A stretch of DNA of 39,054 nt from Mariprofundaceae bacterium. GTDB taxonomy: Bacteria; Pseudomonadota; Zetaproteobacteria; Mariprofundales; Mariprofundaceae. Positions 2,911 through 38,977 of this stretch are shown piece by piece. The notes under the pieces are model-generated. The model had not been told where the DNA came from. It ran no database searches and saw nothing but the letters and a program-made list of their open reading frames with translations. The stretch covers positions 1-39,054 of the forward strand of contig JAUZQU010000134.1 of the NCBI GenBank assembly GCA_030950835.1, in the 5' to 3' direction. Position 1 is the stretch's first letter. Every line of letters starts with the position of its first letter. A program made the translations under genes and the position numbers.

Positions 2911-5418
2911 ATGCGAAAAAAACAACAGTCACGGCACTGGATATTCGCCAGCGTGGCTGTTGTATTGTTGTTGTTCATGAGTATCAACAAGCTCAACCAT
3001 CAACAATTATACCATAGTTTACAGCAACAACTCGCCAACACAGGCATCGCATTACAAGCTAAAAACATCCAGTTAAGTTGGATGTACCTTGGCTCCATTC
3101 GTTTGGATGGGGTGAACATGCAAAGTGACCATTTTCAGCTTTCCGCGCAACATCTTTTTATTGACCTTGATTTGGCAGCCTTGTTAACGGGCAAAGCGCT
3201 AGCCCAAGCCTTGTATTTACAATTGGCAGATATTGATGTGGAAAAAAATCAAACAAACACATGGTTAAAGCTCATAGACAACGACAGTTTCAAGCTGAAA
3301 CGTATTGATATATCACAAAGTGAAATCCATTTTGCCGAACAACATCTTACCCTTAAACAAGTGGATTTGGATATTCGTGATATTGGCAAAAACAAAAGTC
3401 CACGCTTAGAACTTAGGGCACATATAGGCGATGGACGCATAGATGCACATGGTTATTTGCATCTCAAACGTGGTGAAATCACCCGTGGTTTTGGGCGTGT
3501 ACGTTTATTTGATATTCCCGTGCAACCATGGCTAAAACATACCCGTTTACACTCTTTAAACGGTACCATCACCACCCATATCAACCAAGATTCAACATGG
3601 CAGGCGCTTGGACATCTTGCCATTCAAGATCAACAACTTAACCAACTTGAACTGCGTGGAAAAGTGCTTCGTAATATCGAAAATATTATGGACATTCAAG
3701 ATATGGTGTTGCACATTAACCAAGCTGGGGCGTTCAACATCCAAGGGCAGTGTTCAGCGTTATTCAACTGCAAAGTGCAACTGCAAAGTGAACGTATTGC
3801 CTTAGCACCTGTGTTTTCTTTGCTCAACCAAGAACAACATGCCGAGAAGCTAGGTAGTAGCCGCATCCAAGACGTGAATATGGCTTTAACATGGGAAAAT
3901 GAGGTGTTCTCCAGCTCTGGGCATGCCAAGTGGCAAAGCTTGTTTTATGACACCATCACTTTGGCTGCGGGGAAAATAGAGCTGCAAGATTTGTCTTATC
4001 AAGATGGGCATGGCTGGCAGTTAGACAAGTTAAATGTCAGGCAAACAGATGAAGACCATGCTTCGCTCTCTCTTGAGCAAGCCAGCTATGTCCAAGAGCG
4101 TTGGATTCTACCTCTACACCTGCAACATAGTGCCTTGTGGTTGCCTTTGGCACAGACATTAGAGACTATATTTAGCCAAGAATCGCCGAAGTTACAAGGT
4201 TCTGGGCTGATGCATGGTCAGTTGTTATTGCACATAAAACAACAGCAACTGCAACAGCTCAACATGGATATTTATGCCCAACAAGCGCACATTATCTGGC
4301 AACAAGTGGAAAAACCATTGGCTGTGCCAAGCTTTATTCGCGGTGAAATCACTTGGCAAGATCATGTTATTAACCAAGCCGAAATCTCGCTTGGTTTGGC
4401 GAAAAGCCGTGCTGAGATAGATTATATACGCACGGAACAACACACGGTATGGAAGTTAGAAAAGTTGAACATAGATATATCTCAATGGCAAGATATGGGC
4501 ATTCAATTACCCACATTTTGGCAAGCTTGGCATGGGCGTGTGCAAGGTGACATCATGTTCAAACAAGCTGCACAACAACGCACTTGGAGCATAGATCAAG
4601 CCACATTACAACTCGCCAATTTTGGTGATGCTGGGCATCAGTTTGATGGTGATGTGAAAAAGAATGGTCGTCAGTGGTGGTTGGATGATGTGATGTGGAA
4701 ATTCCAGCAACAGCAGGCCGTGTTCTCCAGTGTTGGCAGCGCTACTGTACGGATAAAAGCAGCGCGTTTGGATGCACAAAATTTGATGTTATTAGCCAAG
4801 ATTGAAGGTTTCAAGGGGCATTTGCAAAGCCGTATACTACACTTACCCTTTGCTGATTTTGAAAACTTTTCTAGCACACTGCAAACTTCCAAGCACGGTT
4901 TGCAACTGAGCAACAGCAAAAGTGATTTTCATCAAGGAACCTTACGCAGTAAACTTATGCACATCCGCCAAGACGATGCCCGTATGCACTTTTCTGGGTC
5001 TCTACAATTAGGGAATGTGCATTTAAAACCATGGGCGTGGTTACAACAACAATTCCAAAACCCTTTGCGGGGTAATTTGTATGCCACGTTGAACCTACAA
5101 GCCAGCTTTGATGATGCTTTGACACTACATCATTGGTCTGGTGATGGTGATGTGCAGGTCTATAATGCCCAGTGGCTGCGTGCAAATGATCATCTCCATG
5201 CAGATTCACTACAACTCAAGCTGCGCAAACGAAAACAGTTTGCAGCAGATATTAATGTAGAAAATGGACGCAATCATGGTTCAGGAAAACTTCTGATTGA
5301 TGCACAACATGATAGCTCAGGTTATCTGCAATGGTTGGGGAAACGTGTCCACTTCAGCCATGATTGGCAACACATGCAATTTACGACAAACGACGAATCT
5401 GCTATTGAAAAGCAGTAA
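2911..5418 (+). CDS. Large membrane-anchored periplasmic protein, probably AsmA-like superfamily
   Basis: 835-aa ORF starting 2 nt after the gatB stop. Basic N-terminus, one TM helix, then a long run of alternating-hydrophobic beta-strand-like sequence. Family assignment is by architecture only. Confidence 0.6.
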   Translation: MRKKQQSRHWIFASVAVVLLLFMSINKLNHQQLYHSLQQQLANTGIALQAKNIQLSWMYLGSIRLDGVNMQSDHFQLSAQHLFIDLDLAALLTGKALAQALYLQLADIDVEKNQTNTWLKLIDNDSFKLKRIDISQSEIHFAEQHLTLKQVDLDIRDIGKNKSPRLELRAHIGDGRIDAHGYLHLKRGEITRGFGRVRLFDIPVQPWLKHTRLHSLNGTITTHINQDSTWQALGHLAIQDQQLNQLELRGKVLRNIENIMDIQDMVLHINQAGAFNIQGQCSALFNCKVQLQSERIALAPVFSLLNQEQHAEKLGSSRIQDVNMALTWENEVFSSSGHAKWQSLFYDTITLAAGKIELQDLSYQDGHGWQLDKLNVRQTDEDHASLSLEQASYVQERWILPLHLQHSALWLPLAQTLETIFSQESPKLQGSGLMHGQLLLHIKQQQLQQLNMDIYAQQAHIIWQQVEKPLAVPSFIRGEITWQDHVINQAEISLGLAKSRAEIDYIRTEQHTVWKLEKLNIDISQWQDMGIQLPTFWQAWHGRVQGDIMFKQAAQQRTWSIDQATLQLANFGDAGHQFDGDVKKNGRQWWLDDVMWKFQQQQAVFSSVGSATVRIKAARLDAQNLMLLAKIEGFKGHLQSRILHLPFADFENFSSTLQTSKHGLQLSNSKSDFHQGTLRSKLMHIRQDDARMHFSGSLQLGNVHLKPWAWLQQQFQNPLRGNLYATLNLQASFDDALTLHHWSGDGDVQVYNAQWLRANDHLHADSLQLKLRKRKQFAADINVENGRNHGSGKLLIDAQHDSSGYLQWLGKRVHFSHDWQHMQFTTNDESAIEKQ

Positions 5419-13356: not shown

Positions 13357-14097
13357 ATGCCGCACTACCGTCGTTTTCAAGATATTTCTGTCAGTGAGAA
13401 GCTTTTAAACTCGATGTTTTTATTGATGATTGCAGTTGCATATCTTTTTGCATTATTACATATGTACTATGCTCATGAAGGGCGTGATGGCGAAGCTGGT
13501 TTGTCGGTAAAAGACGTGATGATTGCTTATCATGGCAGCCATGACCAAACCCGTCTAGGTGCTGCAATTAAAGGCTCTATGGGTGCAAACTTACCTTCGG
13601 CTGCTGCCAAAAATGATATTCTAGACTGGATCAATCTTGGAGCACATGAGGATGATTACCAAACCCGTATCCGCCCTATTTTTGAGAACAACTGTATCGC
13701 CTGTCACTCCGTTGATAGTGGTATGCCTATTCCCTCGTTAGAATCTTTTGCTGATGTTCGTGCTTTAACCCATACGGATACGGGAGCAACGATTCCAACT
13801 TTGGTGCGTGTATCACATATTCATTTGTTTGGTATTGCATTTATCTTATTTTTTGTAGGTCGTATATTTTTATTATGCGAAATGCCTGCGTTATGGAAGC
13901 GCGTTGCCGTGATCATTCCCTTTGCTGCGGTTTTGATTGATATTCTCTCTTGGTATATTACAAAATCTATCCCTGGTTTTGCTTATGTCGTCGTGATTTC
14001 AGGAGGGCTTATGGGGCTGTCATTGTGGTTCCAAATTGGCGTTTCAATGTATCAAATGTGGTTTCATCAAAAGCATCATCAAGGAGAAGTAACATGA
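13357..14097 (+). CDS. Four-TM inner-membrane protein with a periplasmic c-type heme motif, function unknown
   Basis: TM1, soluble domain with CIACH (13693-13707), SHIHLFG at the start of TM2, two further TM helices. GAGGTG RBS. Confidence 0.8.
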   Translation: MPHYRRFQDISVSEKLLNSMFLLMIAVAYLFALLHMYYAHEGRDGEAGLSVKDVMIAYHGSHDQTRLGAAIKGSMGANLPSAAAKNDILDWINLGAHEDDYQTRIRPIFENNCIACHSVDSGMPIPSLESFADVRALTHTDTGATIPTLVRVSHIHLFGIAFILFFVGRIFLLCEMPALWKRVAVIIPFAAVLIDILSWYITKSIPGFAYVVVISGGLMGLSLWFQIGVSMYQMWFHQKHHQGEVT

Positions 14098-14390
14098 AAA
14101 AAATAACAACAGCGATAGCGGCAATCGCAACAGTAGCATTACTTTCTTCGCCTGCATTTGCCTCTGATGGCGTGGATGGTGCGAAGCTTTTTAACAAGAA
14201 ATGTAAAATGTGCCATAAAATGGAGAAAAGCAGGTCTGCGCCAGCAGTACAATCCATGCATACAGATGCCAGCATTTTATCTGCTAAAATAAGTAACGGT
14301 GGCAAAGGCATGCCTAAGTTTGGTCACAAGTTTTCTGAAGAAGAAATCAGTGCTTTGGTGAAGTATATCCAAAGTAATACAAAAAAATAA
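14094..14390 (+). CDS. Periplasmic monoheme class I cytochrome c
   Basis: Start ATG 14094 (ATGA overlap, AAGGAG RBS). Signal peptide ending AFA, GAKLFNKKCKMCH, distal Met in GKGMPKF. Confidence 0.9.
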   Translation: MKKITTAIAAIATVALLSSPAFASDGVDGAKLFNKKCKMCHKMEKSRSAPAVQSMHTDASILSAKISNGGKGMPKFGHKFSEEEISALVKYIQSNTKK

Positions 14391-14412
14391 AAACGTCACA
14401 AAGGAGAGTGAA

Positions 14413-15225
14413 ATGTTTAAAATAGTTACTATATTCGTCAGTTTGATGGTATTATCAAGCTCTGCTTGGGCAGCAGATATGCAAGGTAAAGCTTTGTTTA
14501 ACAACAATTGTGCATCTTGTCATGCTATGGATGGTAAAGGTTCAAAAATGGGGCTAAAACTCAAGCCTTTTCCCGCCCGAGATTTAACCGCATTGGCAGC
14601 CACCGTACAACGTGATGAGTTGCGCCGCATTATTTCAGGTGGCATTCAAGGTACAGCCATGACACCTAAAAAGTACGATCTTGATGCCTTGGAAATTGAA
14701 TATGTGATTGATTATATTTTGGGCTTTAAACGCACTGTGAATTTAGCCAATGGCAAAAAACGTTTTTCAAAAGTGTGTGTCTCATGCCACGGCATGGATG
14801 GGCGCTCCCAAACAGGTATGGGTGCAAAAAACCTAGTCTATTCCAAATTATCACTTGCTGATACCGTGCATACCATTCGTTATGGTCGGGCAGGCACTAA
14901 AATGACAAGCAAGCGCCACCAATTGAATAATGCTGACATTGAAGATGTGGCTAATTATGTGCACGGCTTACGTTACCAGCATAATTTGAAAAAAGGCGCG
15001 GAATTATATGCTTCTACTTGTAAATCATGCCATAAATCACCATCCACCATTAAGCTTCAAGGCAATGCGGCTGCGAAAAAGAGCATGTCTGACTTAAGTG
15101 ATTACGTTTTAGACCTGCGTATTCGTCATGGTCGTCATGTGGCCCGTTCGAACAAACAAGTTCAACATTTATCGGATGATGATACGCGTGATATTATTGC
15201 TTACCTAAGGCAAGAAACGAAATAA
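14413..15225 (+). CDS. Periplasmic triheme cytochrome c (three tandem class I domains)
   Basis: Signal peptide ending AWA. CASCH, CVSCH and CKSCH, each preceded by a G-x-x-x-F/Y helix. AAGGAG RBS. Confidence 0.9.
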   Translation: MFKIVTIFVSLMVLSSSAWAADMQGKALFNNNCASCHAMDGKGSKMGLKLKPFPARDLTALAATVQRDELRRIISGGIQGTAMTPKKYDLDALEIEYVIDYILGFKRTVNLANGKKRFSKVCVSCHGMDGRSQTGMGAKNLVYSKLSLADTVHTIRYGRAGTKMTSKRHQLNNADIEDVANYVHGLRYQHNLKKGAELYASTCKSCHKSPSTIKLQGNAAAKKSMSDLSDYVLDLRIRHGRHVARSNKQVQHLSDDDTRDIIAYLRQETK

Positions 15226-34738: not shown

Positions 34739-37621
34739 TTAAAACAACTCTACATCATCATCCATACCAATCGTAATCAGCTCGACAATATCATCACGTC
34801 TATCCAACCATGAACGCCGAGAAACGGGATTGCCAAAGGGGTTGATGATGATTTGGTTTTGCCGTACACATGAAAAGTCTTCATGATGCGGAAATAGCAT
34901 ATGTACTGCAGTTTGCACGGGGTCTTTCCATTCAAATGCCGAGTTGAGCCTGAAACCTATCCATAAATAACCCTGCTCTAACAACATCGCAAACAAATCA
35001 TCCGCAGATTCAGGTAATGCTTGATGCACTTTCAATATCTTGATGTTCATTTGGTCACTATCACCAAAATCAATCATCAACTGATCCAAAGCATGGCGTA
35101 ATGCACGGTTAATTTTATACATACTCTCACTTTCCGAGGTATACATATTAAAGCTGGTATGCGCCACATAAGCACCATAAAACTCGTTGGGGACAGTCAT
35201 ATGTACTTCCGTCTTCAAGACATCATGCTCCAACTCTTGTTGCAACAAACGTACTTGCGAACGCTCCTCTAAAACAGGGAATACTTGCGGACGTTTGTCT
35301 GCATCTTCCACAATAGTGATGATATGCGATAATGTGGTCGCGATGACGGCATAAGCATCTTCTTCCATGTGTAAAGGTCGGGATAAAATCACCCTGTCAC
35401 ACTCATTCAAATAGGGTGCTAAGGCATTCATATCTGAGAAGTCCCAACGTTGAATACGGATGGTCACCAACTCATCCAAACCTGGTTCTTCGGCAAGCCT
35501 TCGTTGCAGGTAGTTTTGTTGGCTAAGCACCTCGCTGTCCGGCAAATCATCCAAAATAGTCAGGGTCATCTCATGGTAAAAACGCAAAAGCCGTTTGAGC
35601 AATAAAGGTAAACTTCCTACCCAACCTATCACCAGCAAGTTCAAGGTGTCCGCAGCTTCTACTTCCACCAAACCATGGCTCGACAAAGAACCTGATGCAT
35701 TGGCTGGTGTAGGTGGTGTTTGATGGTTCAGCATAGTCATGATTTCACCATGAAGTTGGTGTTGATCCACCGCAATACCAATCACACCTTGTAGCTGTAC
35801 TTCTGCTTTGAAAATATCATCCAAACCATACACAGGTTTTGTTTTTCCCTGTTCATCCACAATGCCAATGAAAGTGACACCTTTGCTGAATAACGCACAT
35901 GTCAGCTGCTGAATATTCATTTGTTGTTTCAAATCAGGGCTGGTTAACATCCATTGTTCATCTTCACCACGCACCAACTTACCTGACCACTCTGAAATCA
36001 CCATCGCAGACTCTTCTGGTCTGTCTGGAATCATTAAACGGTTCATGATTTGATCAAAGTCGCTGAAACGTAAAATATTACACAGTGCATTGGCCCTGAA
36101 ATCGGCTTCTGAAATGATGACCGTAGGAAAATTGAACCGTTTGGACTTGTCCCAGCCCACCTGCAACATATGCTCATGTTGTTCCAAATGTGGAGCAGCC
36201 ATGCCTGGTATCGCATAACTCAAATACAGTTCGGGGTTCACTTTACGAATCGCCAACAGACTAAAAAAGGCATGTGCCAAGGATTTAGCACCATTCGCAG
36301 GAGGCATCATAACCAAACCTTGTTGGGCAGCAGCTAAGTTGACGCGCCGCAAATCTTCCAGCCTCTCAAAGCTACCTTGACGATAAGTCAGCCATTTTTC
36401 ATCAATCACTTCAGCTGGTGTTTCATCCGCATTATGCAATAAAACCAATTTTAATCGGGTAAATGAACGGTCTGAAATCGTTTTTAGCTGTCGAATGATA
36501 AAAGGCGCAGCCGAAGACCAACCCAACATCACCATATGGTTGGTCATCACCAAACGTTCATTACGCAATTTAATCATCAAACCAGAAACAATGTTGGCAC
36601 CAATACCAATGAAAAATGCAAAGACAAATACGCCAATAATGACCGCTACAATGGAGAATACAGTTAAACCAAAGCTTTGAGGGAACAACACCGCATTGCC
36701 AGGGTCGGTAAACAGGCGAAACGCAAACCAAATCGGCGCTAAGATTTCACCATCTTGAGCGTTGATGATTTTATCTTGGGTAAAATCAAATTCACCCAAA
36801 AATAAATGCGCCAAAACACCGCCGCCAATGGATAATACCGCCAAAATTAACACAATCAGGTTGATTTCCTGAAAGAACTGACCCTCACGCATCACATCAC
36901 GCAAGTTACGAATAATCACCATCCACGGTCTGAACAGGCGAATCAAACGCAACATCCTTAAAATACTACCAATATTGGTATTACCAAAAATCGGAACCAT
37001 GGCAATAGTAGCTATAAGGTCTAACCACCAAAAAAACCATTCAGAGATACGTTCGCTATCGGTTTCGTAGGCCATGTTTTTCATCACCAAGTAACGTAAA
37101 CACAATTCCACCAAGAAAAAGATGATAATAACCCATAACAAAGTATCGGTAGCGAAAAATGAAATCAGAATGACCAGAGAGATAAACATGCCATAAGTGG
37201 GTGAATACATGGCACTTTGCAAATCAAGATAACGGAAAACACGCAAGGTGCGCAACAAATAAACCGCCCTTAACATACGCACTGCAGCGGCATTTTCAGC
37301 CATGAAAGGCATGTCAAAAATGGTAATCAATAATGAGGCAACACCAATGATGTCCAAGACCAATAACAATATATCTACCCGCTGATTCAACGAGGAGCGG
37401 TAAGGCGCGGTAATGGCTTTACGGCGCATAATCAAGAAACGCAAACTGATTTCGGCAAAGAAAATTACAAATAAAATCGAAGCCAAAACCCTGTCATGGG
37501 TAAACGACAAAGCAATCAAAGCAATCATACAAAAACCAAATCTAGGATGTGCCAACATCCATTCTAAGTGATGGTATAATAAAGACTTATCCTGGAATAC
37601 AGTTTTCAAATTATGCAGCAT
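34739..37621 (-). CDS. Putative cation channel: two tandem voltage-sensor-like domains, CASTOR/POLLUX-like pore, RCK domains
   Basis: Two S4-like arginine ladders (RMLRAVYLLRTLRVFR; RMLRLIRLFR), each preceded by FxxExxxR and LD helices. Pore WFAFRLFTDPGN. Rossmann-like RCK starts NHMVMLGWS and NLLVIGW. AAGGGAG RBS. Confidence 0.8.
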   Translation of the reverse strand: MLHNLKTVFQDKSLLYHHLEWMLAHPRFGFCMIALIALSFTHDRVLASILFVIFFAEISLRFLIMRRKAITAPYRSSLNQRVDILLLVLDIIGVASLLITIFDMPFMAENAAAVRMLRAVYLLRTLRVFRYLDLQSAMYSPTYGMFISLVILISFFATDTLLWVIIIFFLVELCLRYLVMKNMAYETDSERISEWFFWWLDLIATIAMVPIFGNTNIGSILRMLRLIRLFRPWMVIIRNLRDVMREGQFFQEINLIVLILAVLSIGGGVLAHLFLGEFDFTQDKIINAQDGEILAPIWFAFRLFTDPGNAVLFPQSFGLTVFSIVAVIIGVFVFAFFIGIGANIVSGLMIKLRNERLVMTNHMVMLGWSSAAPFIIRQLKTISDRSFTRLKLVLLHNADETPAEVIDEKWLTYRQGSFERLEDLRRVNLAAAQQGLVMMPPANGAKSLAHAFFSLLAIRKVNPELYLSYAIPGMAAPHLEQHEHMLQVGWDKSKRFNFPTVIISEADFRANALCNILRFSDFDQIMNRLMIPDRPEESAMVISEWSGKLVRGEDEQWMLTSPDLKQQMNIQQLTCALFSKGVTFIGIVDEQGKTKPVYGLDDIFKAEVQLQGVIGIAVDQHQLHGEIMTMLNHQTPPTPANASGSLSSHGLVEVEAADTLNLLVIGWVGSLPLLLKRLLRFYHEMTLTILDDLPDSEVLSQQNYLQRRLAEEPGLDELVTIRIQRWDFSDMNALAPYLNECDRVILSRPLHMEEDAYAVIATTLSHIITIVEDADKRPQVFPVLEERSQVRLLQQELEHDVLKTEVHMTVPNEFYGAYVAHTSFNMYTSESESMYKINRALRHALDQLMIDFGDSDQMNIKILKVHQALPESADDLFAMLLEQGYLWIGFRLNSAFEWKDPVQTAVHMLFPHHEDFSCVRQNQIIINPFGNPVSRRSWLDRRDDIVELITIGMDDDVELF

Positions 37622-37639: not shown

Positions 37640-37984
37640 TCAAGAAACTTGCACACATTGATACACGCAAATGCCTATCCATGCTTTCTCCCCATTTTGT
37701 GCATCTTGAGCGCAGGCCACAAAACCCCGACCACTCAGCGTATTTTGATAGGCGAGGGTGAAGTCATCCAACAACTGAAATTTCATTTCTTGACCAATAT
37801 AAGAATGATCAAAATGTGTCGTGAAAAAACTGATGCCGCCATCCGAGAAATCGCGTAATTCCGTAGACTCATAATTCAAATCATCATTTTTGGCATACGC
37901 ATAGATTTCAACTGCCAACGTAGCAGCTTTCCTAGGGTGATTTCGTCTATCATGGTTAGTGTCTTGTGTTTGTAGGGCTGTCAT
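37640..37984 (-). CDS. Stand-alone PilZ domain protein (c-di-GMP receptor)
   Basis: DRRNHPR (RxxxR) and DFSDGG (DxSxxG) motifs. Start placed at ATG 37984. Confidence 0.82.
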   Translation of the reverse strand: MTALQTQDTNHDRRNHPRKAATLAVEIYAYAKNDDLNYESTELRDFSDGGISFFTTHFDHSYIGQEMKFQLLDDFTLAYQNTLSGRGFVACAQDAQNGEKAWIGICVYQCVQVS

Positions 37985-38349: not shown

Positions 38350-38383
38350 AAAAAAGCCTGCAAACACTAGGTTTACAGGCTTT
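38350..38383 (-). terminator. Intrinsic terminator downstream of tRNA-Leu
   Basis: Minus strand AAAGCCTGTAAAC-ctagt-GTTTGCAGGCTTT running into a T-tract. Confidence 0.75.
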
Positions 38384-38407: not shown

Positions 38408-38494
38408 TGGTACCGAGGGCCGGAGTCGAACCGGCACGGCCGCAAAGCCACTGGATTTTGAATCCAGCGTGTCTACCAGTTTCACCACCCCGGC
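38408..38494 (-). tRNA. tRNA-Leu(CAA)
   Basis: GCCGGGGTGGTGAAACTGGTAGACACGCTGGATTCAAAATCCAGTGGCTTTGCGGCCGTGCCGGTTCGACTCCGGCCCTCGGTACCA. Anticodon stem CTGGA/TCCAG, loop TTCAAAA, long variable arm, GTTCGA T-loop, encoded CCA. Confidence 0.97.
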
Positions 38495-38578: not shown

Positions 38579-38977
38579 TCAATGCGTAAATGAGAAAAAT
38601 AAACGTTGCTCATCCATTGTTTTGATTTGTAGCATCAACGTGTTACTTCGCTGCTGAGAGAAGCGTAGTTGACGACTCATCAAGTAATCACCCTGCTTAC
38701 GCATCATGAATTTCTTACCTGAGGACATCTGTAATAATGAGGCCGATGTAAGGTCATCAAGTGAATGCGGTGGCAGCAGTAAGAGCCGCACTTCATGACT
38801 ATGGGTATCTTGTTCAGGGAAGATTTGTAGCTCTACTGTCCAACCTTGAGAAGTGGCCAGATAACTTTGTGCTAAACTTCGTTGCAAGGCAAAGTCGCGC
38901 TTGCTCTGCTGCTCTATGTGTAAAACACGTTGTGACTCACGTTTTGCGGCTTCTTTTTCAAGGTCTTCATGCGCCAT
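38579..38977 (-). CDS. Hypothetical protein, possibly N-terminally truncated
   Basis: 132-aa ORF with protein-like composition, no recognised motif and no clear RBS. Confidence 0.5.
   Translation of the reverse strand: MAHEDLEKEAAKRESQRVLHIEQQSKRDFALQRSLAQSYLATSQGWTVELQIFPEQDTHSHEVRLLLLPPHSLDDLTSASLLQMSSGKKFMMRKQGDYLMSRQLRFSQQRSNTLMLQIKTMDEQRLFFSFTH

Follow-up and report, generated by a model that had tools for sequence, protein, structure and literature searches.

A conserved Zetaproteobacterial channel family with two voltage-sensor-like units ahead of one pore, and its linkage to motility genes

Characterised voltage-gated channels are not known to have more than one voltage sensor per pore unit. 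A gene in a 39,054-nucleotide stretch of DNA from a Mariprofundaceae bacterium (Zetaproteobacteria; assembly GCA_030950835.1, contig JAUZQU010000134.1, positions 1 to 39,054; the whole stretch is hereafter called the window) raises the question of whether two sensors can be placed in series ahead of a single pore and, if so, what such a channel does in the cell. For this gene, an original prediction, made from the letters of the window alone, had proposed a subunit with the domain order sensor-sensor-pore-RCK-RCK, in which the pore and the gating ring are of the CASTOR/POLLUX type. Tests based on conservation, profiles and structure uphold that domain order. The channel family is real and conserved, and its function is predicted.

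Architecture and conservation of the subunit

The reading frame of the channel gene is intact and begins with ATG. A homologue search found 169 related proteins, and the 120 that were listed span 96-100% of the query at 49-100% identity; the conservation counts given below refer to the alignment of these 120 sequences. We considered an artefact, a misassembly or a chance fusion, all of which are excluded by the number and coverage of the homologues. Searched as a whole, the 960-residue protein has no match in Pfam, nothing useful in NCBIfam and 0 matches in a single-sequence search of the PDB. The full-chain AlphaFold2 model (predicted local distance difference test [pLDDT] score 84; predicted template modelling [pTM] score 0.81) contains two four-helix units, S5, a short pore helix (residues 294-305), S6 (residues 317-354) and two alpha/beta domains. 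This model bears out the predicted total of about ten transmembrane helices per subunit and the pore helix expected at residues 295-310, and every residue singled out by the original prediction sits where it had been placed in the reading frame.

Both N-terminal units carry the hallmarks of voltage sensors. In the first unit, F54, E57, R61, D90 and the S4 arginines R115, R118, R124, R127 and R130 are each found in 120/120 sequences, and position 121 of the S4 register is an invariant Tyr; in the second, F169, E172, R176, D201, R222, R225 and R228 are likewise each found in 120/120, and R231 is Arg in 119 sequences and Lys in one. The two sensors together thus hold nine conserved S4 arginines per subunit. 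Profiles of the two units are homologous to each other (HHalign P 93.9%, E 1.5e-7, 29% identity over 91 columns). The further claim that no pore lies between them also holds: the units are joined by a linker of only about nine residues, in which D133, M138 and S140 are invariant and which is followed by P141, Y143, G144 and M145, and neither sensor profile matches the pore profile (HHalign P < 1%). A two-repeat channel that had lost one pore was considered as well, and the absence of any trace of a pore between the units rules it out.

Profile alignment to BK extends over the second unit, the pore and RCK1 (E 0.0045), and one relative (P0121) has an Ion_trans match at E 9e-13 over the region of sensor 2. 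Because fold searches with the whole model covered residues 247-957 only, the first unit was folded separately, which gave a four-helix model (pLDDT 80). Among the Foldseek matches listed for this model, 45 of 47 are Nav, Cav, Kv, TPC or CatSper chains. An exhaustive fold search placed TRPM2 at the top (Z 9.9, root-mean-square deviation [rmsd] 3.6, 121 residues aligned) and matched the Ci-VSP sensor (Z 8.9, rmsd 3.9, 113 aligned); 22 of the 50 matches listed carry sensor domains, mixed with designed bundles. Atlas clusters for residues 1-360 of a homologue were limited to generic Ion_trans/Slo, all below 0.9. Motifs and homology make a strong case that the first unit is a voltage sensor, and the fold evidence alone does not carry this assignment. 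Sensor 1 is also under purifying selection and not decaying, because its mean column conservation (0.75) equals that of sensor 2 (0.75) and the pore (0.74) and because its ratio of nonsynonymous to synonymous substitution rates is about 0.07 in comparison with the closest relative (L001), for which synonymous sites are near saturation.

The predicted selectivity filter reads TDPGN in 113 of the 120 sequences, with D306 present in all of them, whereas a K+ filter of the TVGYG type occurs in 0/120 aligned relatives, none of which has GYG. The filter and the glycines of S6 are near-invariant in the window gene's own family. In plant CASTOR, POLLUX and DMI1, the filter is ADSGN or ADAGN. The predicted CASTOR-type gating ring found its best structural and profile match in the ring of LjCASTOR, on which residues 360-954 superpose with Z 26.8 and rmsd 3.4 over 478 residues (Foldseek E 7e-17). 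The BK ring scores lower in the structure search (Z 19.9), and a family profile that includes distant relatives matches CASTOR at 8.5e-32 versus about 1e-10 for BK/MthK. Because profiles of RCK1 and RCK2 have no detectable similarity to each other (P 0.6%), the assignment of two RCK domains derives from the structure match.

How does this subunit compare with known channels? CASTOR, POLLUX and DMI1 are channels of the plant nuclear envelope. One report describes CASTOR as a Ca2+-selective, Ca2+-regulated channel with four predicted transmembrane segments, no TVGYG and Ca2+ sites that include D442/D444 (Ca(I)) and E493 (Ca(II)) (PMC6697748). The window channel resembles these proteins (PDB 6o7a, 6o6j, 6o7c and 7vm8) in its tandem-RCK ring, in the lack of TVGYG and in an acidic residue at the position of E493, but it is bacterial, has about ten transmembrane helices and two sensors, lacks equivalents of D442/D444 and has a ring identity of about 16%. 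Like the Slo family (BK/Slo1 and Slo2; PDB 5tj6, 7yo2 and 5u70), it combines sensor, pore and a pair of RCK domains within a single polypeptide, but Slo channels have one sensor and the K+ filter VGFG. Several sensors per polypeptide are also found in two-pore channels (e.g. AtTPC1) and in the repeats of Nav and Cav, where each sensor has its own pore unit; the two sensors of the window channel share one pore. In its working, the channel would resemble a hybrid of BK and CASTOR, and we file it under neither family because it does not have the defining features of either.

Relatives, distribution and motility linkage

Relatives were sought among 1.84 billion representative sequences, which returned 648 matches, and 143 of these were examined. 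Seventy-nine are full-length and have room for one sensor only ahead of a DPGN-type filter. Seven were flagged as having more room, namely five members of the tandem-sensor family, the metagenome protein P0270 and one single-sensor protein flagged by mistake, and the remaining 57 are short or have no detectable filter. The single-sensor 'QDPGN' channels (800-900 amino acids) share the pore motif WxxFRxxxDPGN with the window channel, have Pfam matches to Ion_trans and RCK/Castor, and are its nearest relatives outside Zetaproteobacteria; two of ten clusters that were looked up bear the names Deltaproteobacteria or Myxococcales. We found no paper on these channels in the literature searched. Proteins P0214-P0341 form a large uncharacterised bacterial single-sensor family with a QDPGN filter and a CASTOR-like ring, and they are the nearest sensor-bearing relatives of CASTOR/DMI1 that we encountered.

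The original prediction had presented the architecture as one not known to be described. The literature searched, which left most subscription journals outside, gave no description of the tandem-sensor architecture, of channels in Zetaproteobacteria or of prokaryotic relatives of CASTOR, but the one-sensor version on the same pore and ring is widespread. Since a single sensor with a CASTOR-like pore and ring is thus a broad bacterial family, the doubling is the new step: what is new is the tandem duplication of the sensor, not the joining of a sensor to such a pore and ring.

In a tree of sensors, which was built on few columns and has long branches, the first sensors of the two Zetaproteobacterial subfamilies group together in one clade (95%), and a separate clade (82%) contains the second sensors. 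Because first sensors cluster together and second sensors cluster together, the tree points to one old duplication as the probable source of the tandem sensors. The 900-residue protein P0270 also has two tandem sensors, yet it is nested among single-sensor proteins (97%) in a quick version of the pore tree, from which 18 of 76 rows were omitted when their filter was not caught by the pattern; it looks like an independent duplication of the sensor. A metagenome scan with P0270 recovered 16 loci and no second tandem case (a filter is seen in 13 loci, of which 12 have a single sensor pattern and one lacks any). Apart from P0270, the QDPGN channels differ from the window channel in having one sensor, and they have no motility neighbours in these 16 loci: neighbours that match the 40 Zetaproteobacterial neighbour families tested were found in 0/16.

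Zetaproteobacteria are marine iron oxidisers whose habitats have steep gradients of iron and oxygen. An orthologue of the channel (L017) belongs to Mariprofundus ferrooxydans PV-1. The channel family is present in 77 of the 133 Zetaproteobacteria genomes and in 32 of the 64 near-complete ones. A profile of sensor 1 finds matches in 62/115 genomes of the class and in 0/286 genomes of other Pseudomonadota searched, and 75 of the 78 genome loci with the channel are titled Zetaproteobacteria or one of its families (the other three are titled Gammaproteobacteria, Proteobacteria and proteobacterium). Flagellar rod genes accompany the channel in 75 of the 77 channel-positive genomes, and the channel occurs in only 2 of the 42 flagella-negative genomes. 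Where at least 600 amino acids of the channel gene are available (69 loci), flagellar or che genes lie within 2.5 kb in 46: only flagellar genes in 36, only che genes in 8 and both kinds in 2. The other 23 loci have no such neighbours, in some cases owing to contig ends. A frequent order is flgB-flgC-fliE-fliF-fliG-fliH-fliI-fliJ, a gene with an MgtE_N-like domain, the channel, and fliK-flgD-flgE. The family occupies three motility settings: this fli/flg cluster, a place ahead of cheY-cheA (where cheA was assigned by similarity to CheA found at other loci), and a place between a chemoreceptor gene and cheY. This linkage, which goes beyond what the single stretch seen by the original prediction could reveal, is the main functional clue.

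Two side observations concern gene arrangement. At L071:7254-13170, two divergent channel copies lie in tandem on one contig, and at L028, L035 and L058, a gene for a conventional single-sensor K+ channel-like protein (VGYGD motif; family f152) adjoins the tandem-sensor gene.

A precedent for a voltage-gated channel with a motility connection is NavBP of Bacillus pseudofirmus, which has no RCK ring. One report ties this bacterial channel to motility and chemotaxis, as we propose for the window family, but NavBP is Na+-selective and has one sensor (PMC4225499).

The same genome encodes a 1,153-residue paralogue (L079:6166-9627; G000:C13), which is homologous to the window channel over 866 columns that include both sensors (P 100%). 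Its gene sits between a chemoreceptor gene and cheY-cheA and overlaps the start of cheY; its family comprises 77 matches and one cross-hit. In this family, sensor 1 retains 5-6 arginines and sensor 2 two. Sensor 2 has lost arginines while sensor 1 kept them, a pattern that speaks against sensor 1 being a relic. The filter is more variable (xDPGA/N/V/S), and the C-terminus holds a helical domain of 119 amino acids with DxxxQ (D1103 and Q1107) in 63/63 sequences, followed by cheY in 30/30 loci fetched. DxxxQ is the catalytic motif of CheZ according to PMC7750401. Canonical CheZ is above the cut-off in 0/133 genomes, Pfam CheZ matches 0/32 of the paralogue tails, the AxxFQ that would precede DxxxQ is absent from the tail (which reads LQNID), and no PDB entry matches the tail under E 0.6; the nearest named Atlas cluster is CheZ-like at 0.78, which we treat as a lead only. 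Co-folding of the tail with CheY scored 0.44, as compared with 0.01 for the best control; at least 90% of contacts were shared between runs, and the partner pLDDT was at least 82. Of 157 solved complexes, 116 reach the co-folding mark, as do 2 of 215 mismatches. This pass lends weak support to binding of CheY by the tail, because only 18 of the 157 solved complexes, yet both passing mismatches, score 0.60 or under. In other genomes, the DxxxQ domain also occurs in two to three tandem copies or in short open frames of 120-170 amino acids.

Proposed function and competing explanations

With somewhat better than even confidence, we propose that the protein forms a tetrameric, voltage- and ligand-gated cation channel, likely permeable to Ca2+ and not K+-selective, that feeds membrane potential into flagellar motility. 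The tetramer would have a single pore with eight sensors arranged around it. Opening of the pore gate would fall to sensor 2, acting through its S4-S5 linker as in Kv and BK. Sensor 1, itself without a pore, would exert its pull on S1 of sensor 2 by way of the short invariant linker. The two sensors would act in series, and the nine arginines per subunit would steepen or shift the voltage response; cytoplasmic Ca2+, bound by the ring at a site resembling Ca(II) of CASTOR, would provide further control. Depolarisation would then open the channel and let cations enter, likely including Ca2+, and this entry on falling membrane potential would alter the output of the motor, CheY or the chemotaxis system. 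We hold more tentatively, as possible but doubtful, that this is the founding family of channels gated by two serial sensors, with eight sensors for each Ca2+-permeable CASTOR-type pore, that Zetaproteobacteria have wired it into their flagellar and chemotaxis operons and joined a CheY phosphatase-like domain to one of its paralogues, and that membrane potential would serve as a direct chemotaxis signal (electrical energy taxis).

Several observations weigh against the proposed function. In the structural check suggested for sensor 1, a four-helix bundle was modelled, but on its own this model has a best Foldseek E of 0.27, with no individually significant match, and its Z scores of 9.9 or less are in the range of helical bundles. 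As for Ca2+ control, E537 aligns to the Ca(II) ligand E493 and is acidic in 120/120 sequences (Glu in 104, Asp in 16), but this alignment is ambiguous by two residues, and the Ca(I) ligands D442/D444 map to G473 (Gly in 105/120) and A475 (Asp in 28/120) and are mostly lost. The solved CASTOR chains returned by our searches cover the ring only, and the likeness of TDPGN to the CASTOR filter is one that we presume. The plastid POLLUX-like proteins PEC1/2 are reported to conduct K+ (PMC8644588), and CASTOR/POLLUX lineage alone therefore does not fix selectivity. No channel match was found in 16 of the 91 flagellated genomes, so the channel is dispensable; this and the other genome counts take in related genomes, many of them incomplete, and loss of the channel together with flagella is partly trivial because of linkage inside the operon. 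Finally, the window copy and its three nearest relatives lie outside motility operons, and the adjacent gene for a PilZ-like protein is found as a neighbour only in the window and in L001. Because the copy sits beside this gene and outside such operons, a motility role for the window copy is drawn from its family.

Should both sensors be assigned to gating? Sensor 2 alone might gate the pore, with sensor 1 as a docking or stabilising module, for example for stator, export or receptor-array proteins. We judge this unlikely. It would agree with the AlphaFold2 model, in which sensor 1 has no S4-S5 linker to the pore, with the weak fold scores of sensor 1, and with the far commoner single-sensor relatives, which imply that one sensor suffices for that architecture; yet the five buried S4 arginines of sensor 1 and their counter-charges are invariant in 120/120 sequences, and in the paralogue family the loss of charges affects sensor 2 and spares sensor 1. 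The original prediction had also raised an Hv-like role for the extra sensor. A proton conduit attached to the channel would suit a pore-less S1-S4 unit with a full set of S4 charges, but Hv1 requires an Asp in the middle of S1, and this option is disfavoured because S1 of neither unit has an Asp or Glu in any of the 120 sequences; we regard it as highly improbable.

The remaining alternatives question ion flux or motility instead. An improbable one is that the protein is mainly a voltage-driven conformational switch that conducts few ions or none and whose ring relays sensor motion to partners, for example CheY or PilZ. The helical C-terminal domain of the paralogues with its DxxxQ and adjacent cheY, the co-folding of that domain with CheY and the more variable paralogue filter all speak for such a switch; the window gene's own family, however, has no such tail and keeps its filter and S6 glycines near-invariant, the co-folding pass is weak, and all 32 tails lack a Pfam CheZ match. 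A general channel for ion or pH homeostasis (K+ or non-selective cation), with a historical link to motility and a window copy that acts in cyclic di-GMP or stress physiology, would account for the 23 loci without motility neighbours, for the position of the window copy between the PilZ-like gene and the tRNA nucleotidyltransferase gene, for the 16 single-sensor loci without the neighbour families tested and for K+ conduction by PEC1/2. We consider it improbable, since family members are nearly absent from flagella-negative genomes and the family is found in three separate motility settings.

The position of the gene within flagellar and che operons opens the way to testing whether membrane potential is directly linked to swimming. 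A conserved two-sensor subunit also lets one ask, in a naturally occurring protein, whether sensors can be linked in a chain and how charge movement is relayed, and the tandem family with its single-sensor sisters offers a bacterial route to the full-length pore, and to the disputed selectivity, of the CASTOR/DMI1 plant symbiosis channels.

The window copy and its surroundings

The features of the channel gene and its neighbourhood are collected in Table 1. The local order is tRNA-Leu, the remnant of a hybrid histidine kinase gene, the PilZ-like gene, the channel gene and the tRNA nucleotidyltransferase gene. This order is kept in L001, where the PilZ-like counterpart reaches PilZ E 2.8e-7 and the 568-residue hybrid histidine kinase is intact between tRNA-Leu and the PilZ gene. 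The L001 assembly holds a second channel copy (L006) shortly upstream of fliK. In the window genome, the contig with fliK starts inside fliK, and for this reason a flagellar copy of the channel could lie unassembled. The four-member subclade that contains the window copy is the sister of the subclade that precedes cheY-cheA (100% local support).

Table 1. Features of the channel gene and of the adjoining part of the window
Feature	Position	Strand	Basis or remark
Channel gene, 960 aa; about 10 transmembrane helices and two RCK domains	34739..37621	-	Open reading frame, AlphaFold2, 169 homologues
RCK2, residues ~659-954	34760..35647	-	Structure match, profile
RCK1, residues ~360-632; includes E537	35726..36544	-	Structure match, profile
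Pore module, residues 248-354: S5, pore helix, filter, S6	36560..36880	-	AlphaFold2, BK profile alignment
Predicted selectivity filter TDPGN, residues 305-309	36695..36709	-	Alignment
Voltage-sensor-like unit 2, residues 141-233: F169/E172/R176, E194, D201, S4 R222/R225/R228/R231	36923..37201	-	Conservation, BK alignment, HHalign
Short linker between the sensors (S4 of unit 1 and S1 of unit 2), residues 132-140	37202..37228	-	Conserved in alignment
Voltage-sensor-like unit 1, residues 26-131: F54/E57/R61, D83, D90, S4 R115/R118/Y121/R124/R127/R130	37229..37546	-	Conservation; Ion_trans E 0.0055 for the separate unit, short of cut-off; fold searches
PilZ-like gene, 114 aa, co-directional, 18 bases ahead of channel start	37640..37984	-	PilZ E 4e-4, short of cut-off
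Kinase remnant, 41 codons	38115-38237	-	61% identity, E 4e-10 to N-terminus of 568-aa hybrid histidine kinase
Terminator-like hairpin, 13 pairs, after tRNA-Leu(CAA)	38353-38383		
tRNA-Leu(CAA)	38408-38494	-	
Open reading frame, 132 aa, upstream of tRNA	38579-38977	-	No Pfam/NCBIfam match

A promoter scan returned 6 sites, as compared with 11.5 expected, and was uninformative. Elsewhere in the window, three co-directional genes at 13357-15225 (+) encode a 246-residue membrane protein (one CxxCH, no Pfam match), a small cytochrome c and a trihaem cytochrome c, and are possibly an electron-transfer cluster. At 2911-5418 (+), after gatA-gatB, lies the gene for a beta-rich protein of 835 amino acids with an N-terminal anchor and no Pfam match, which we take to be AsmA-like in appearance.

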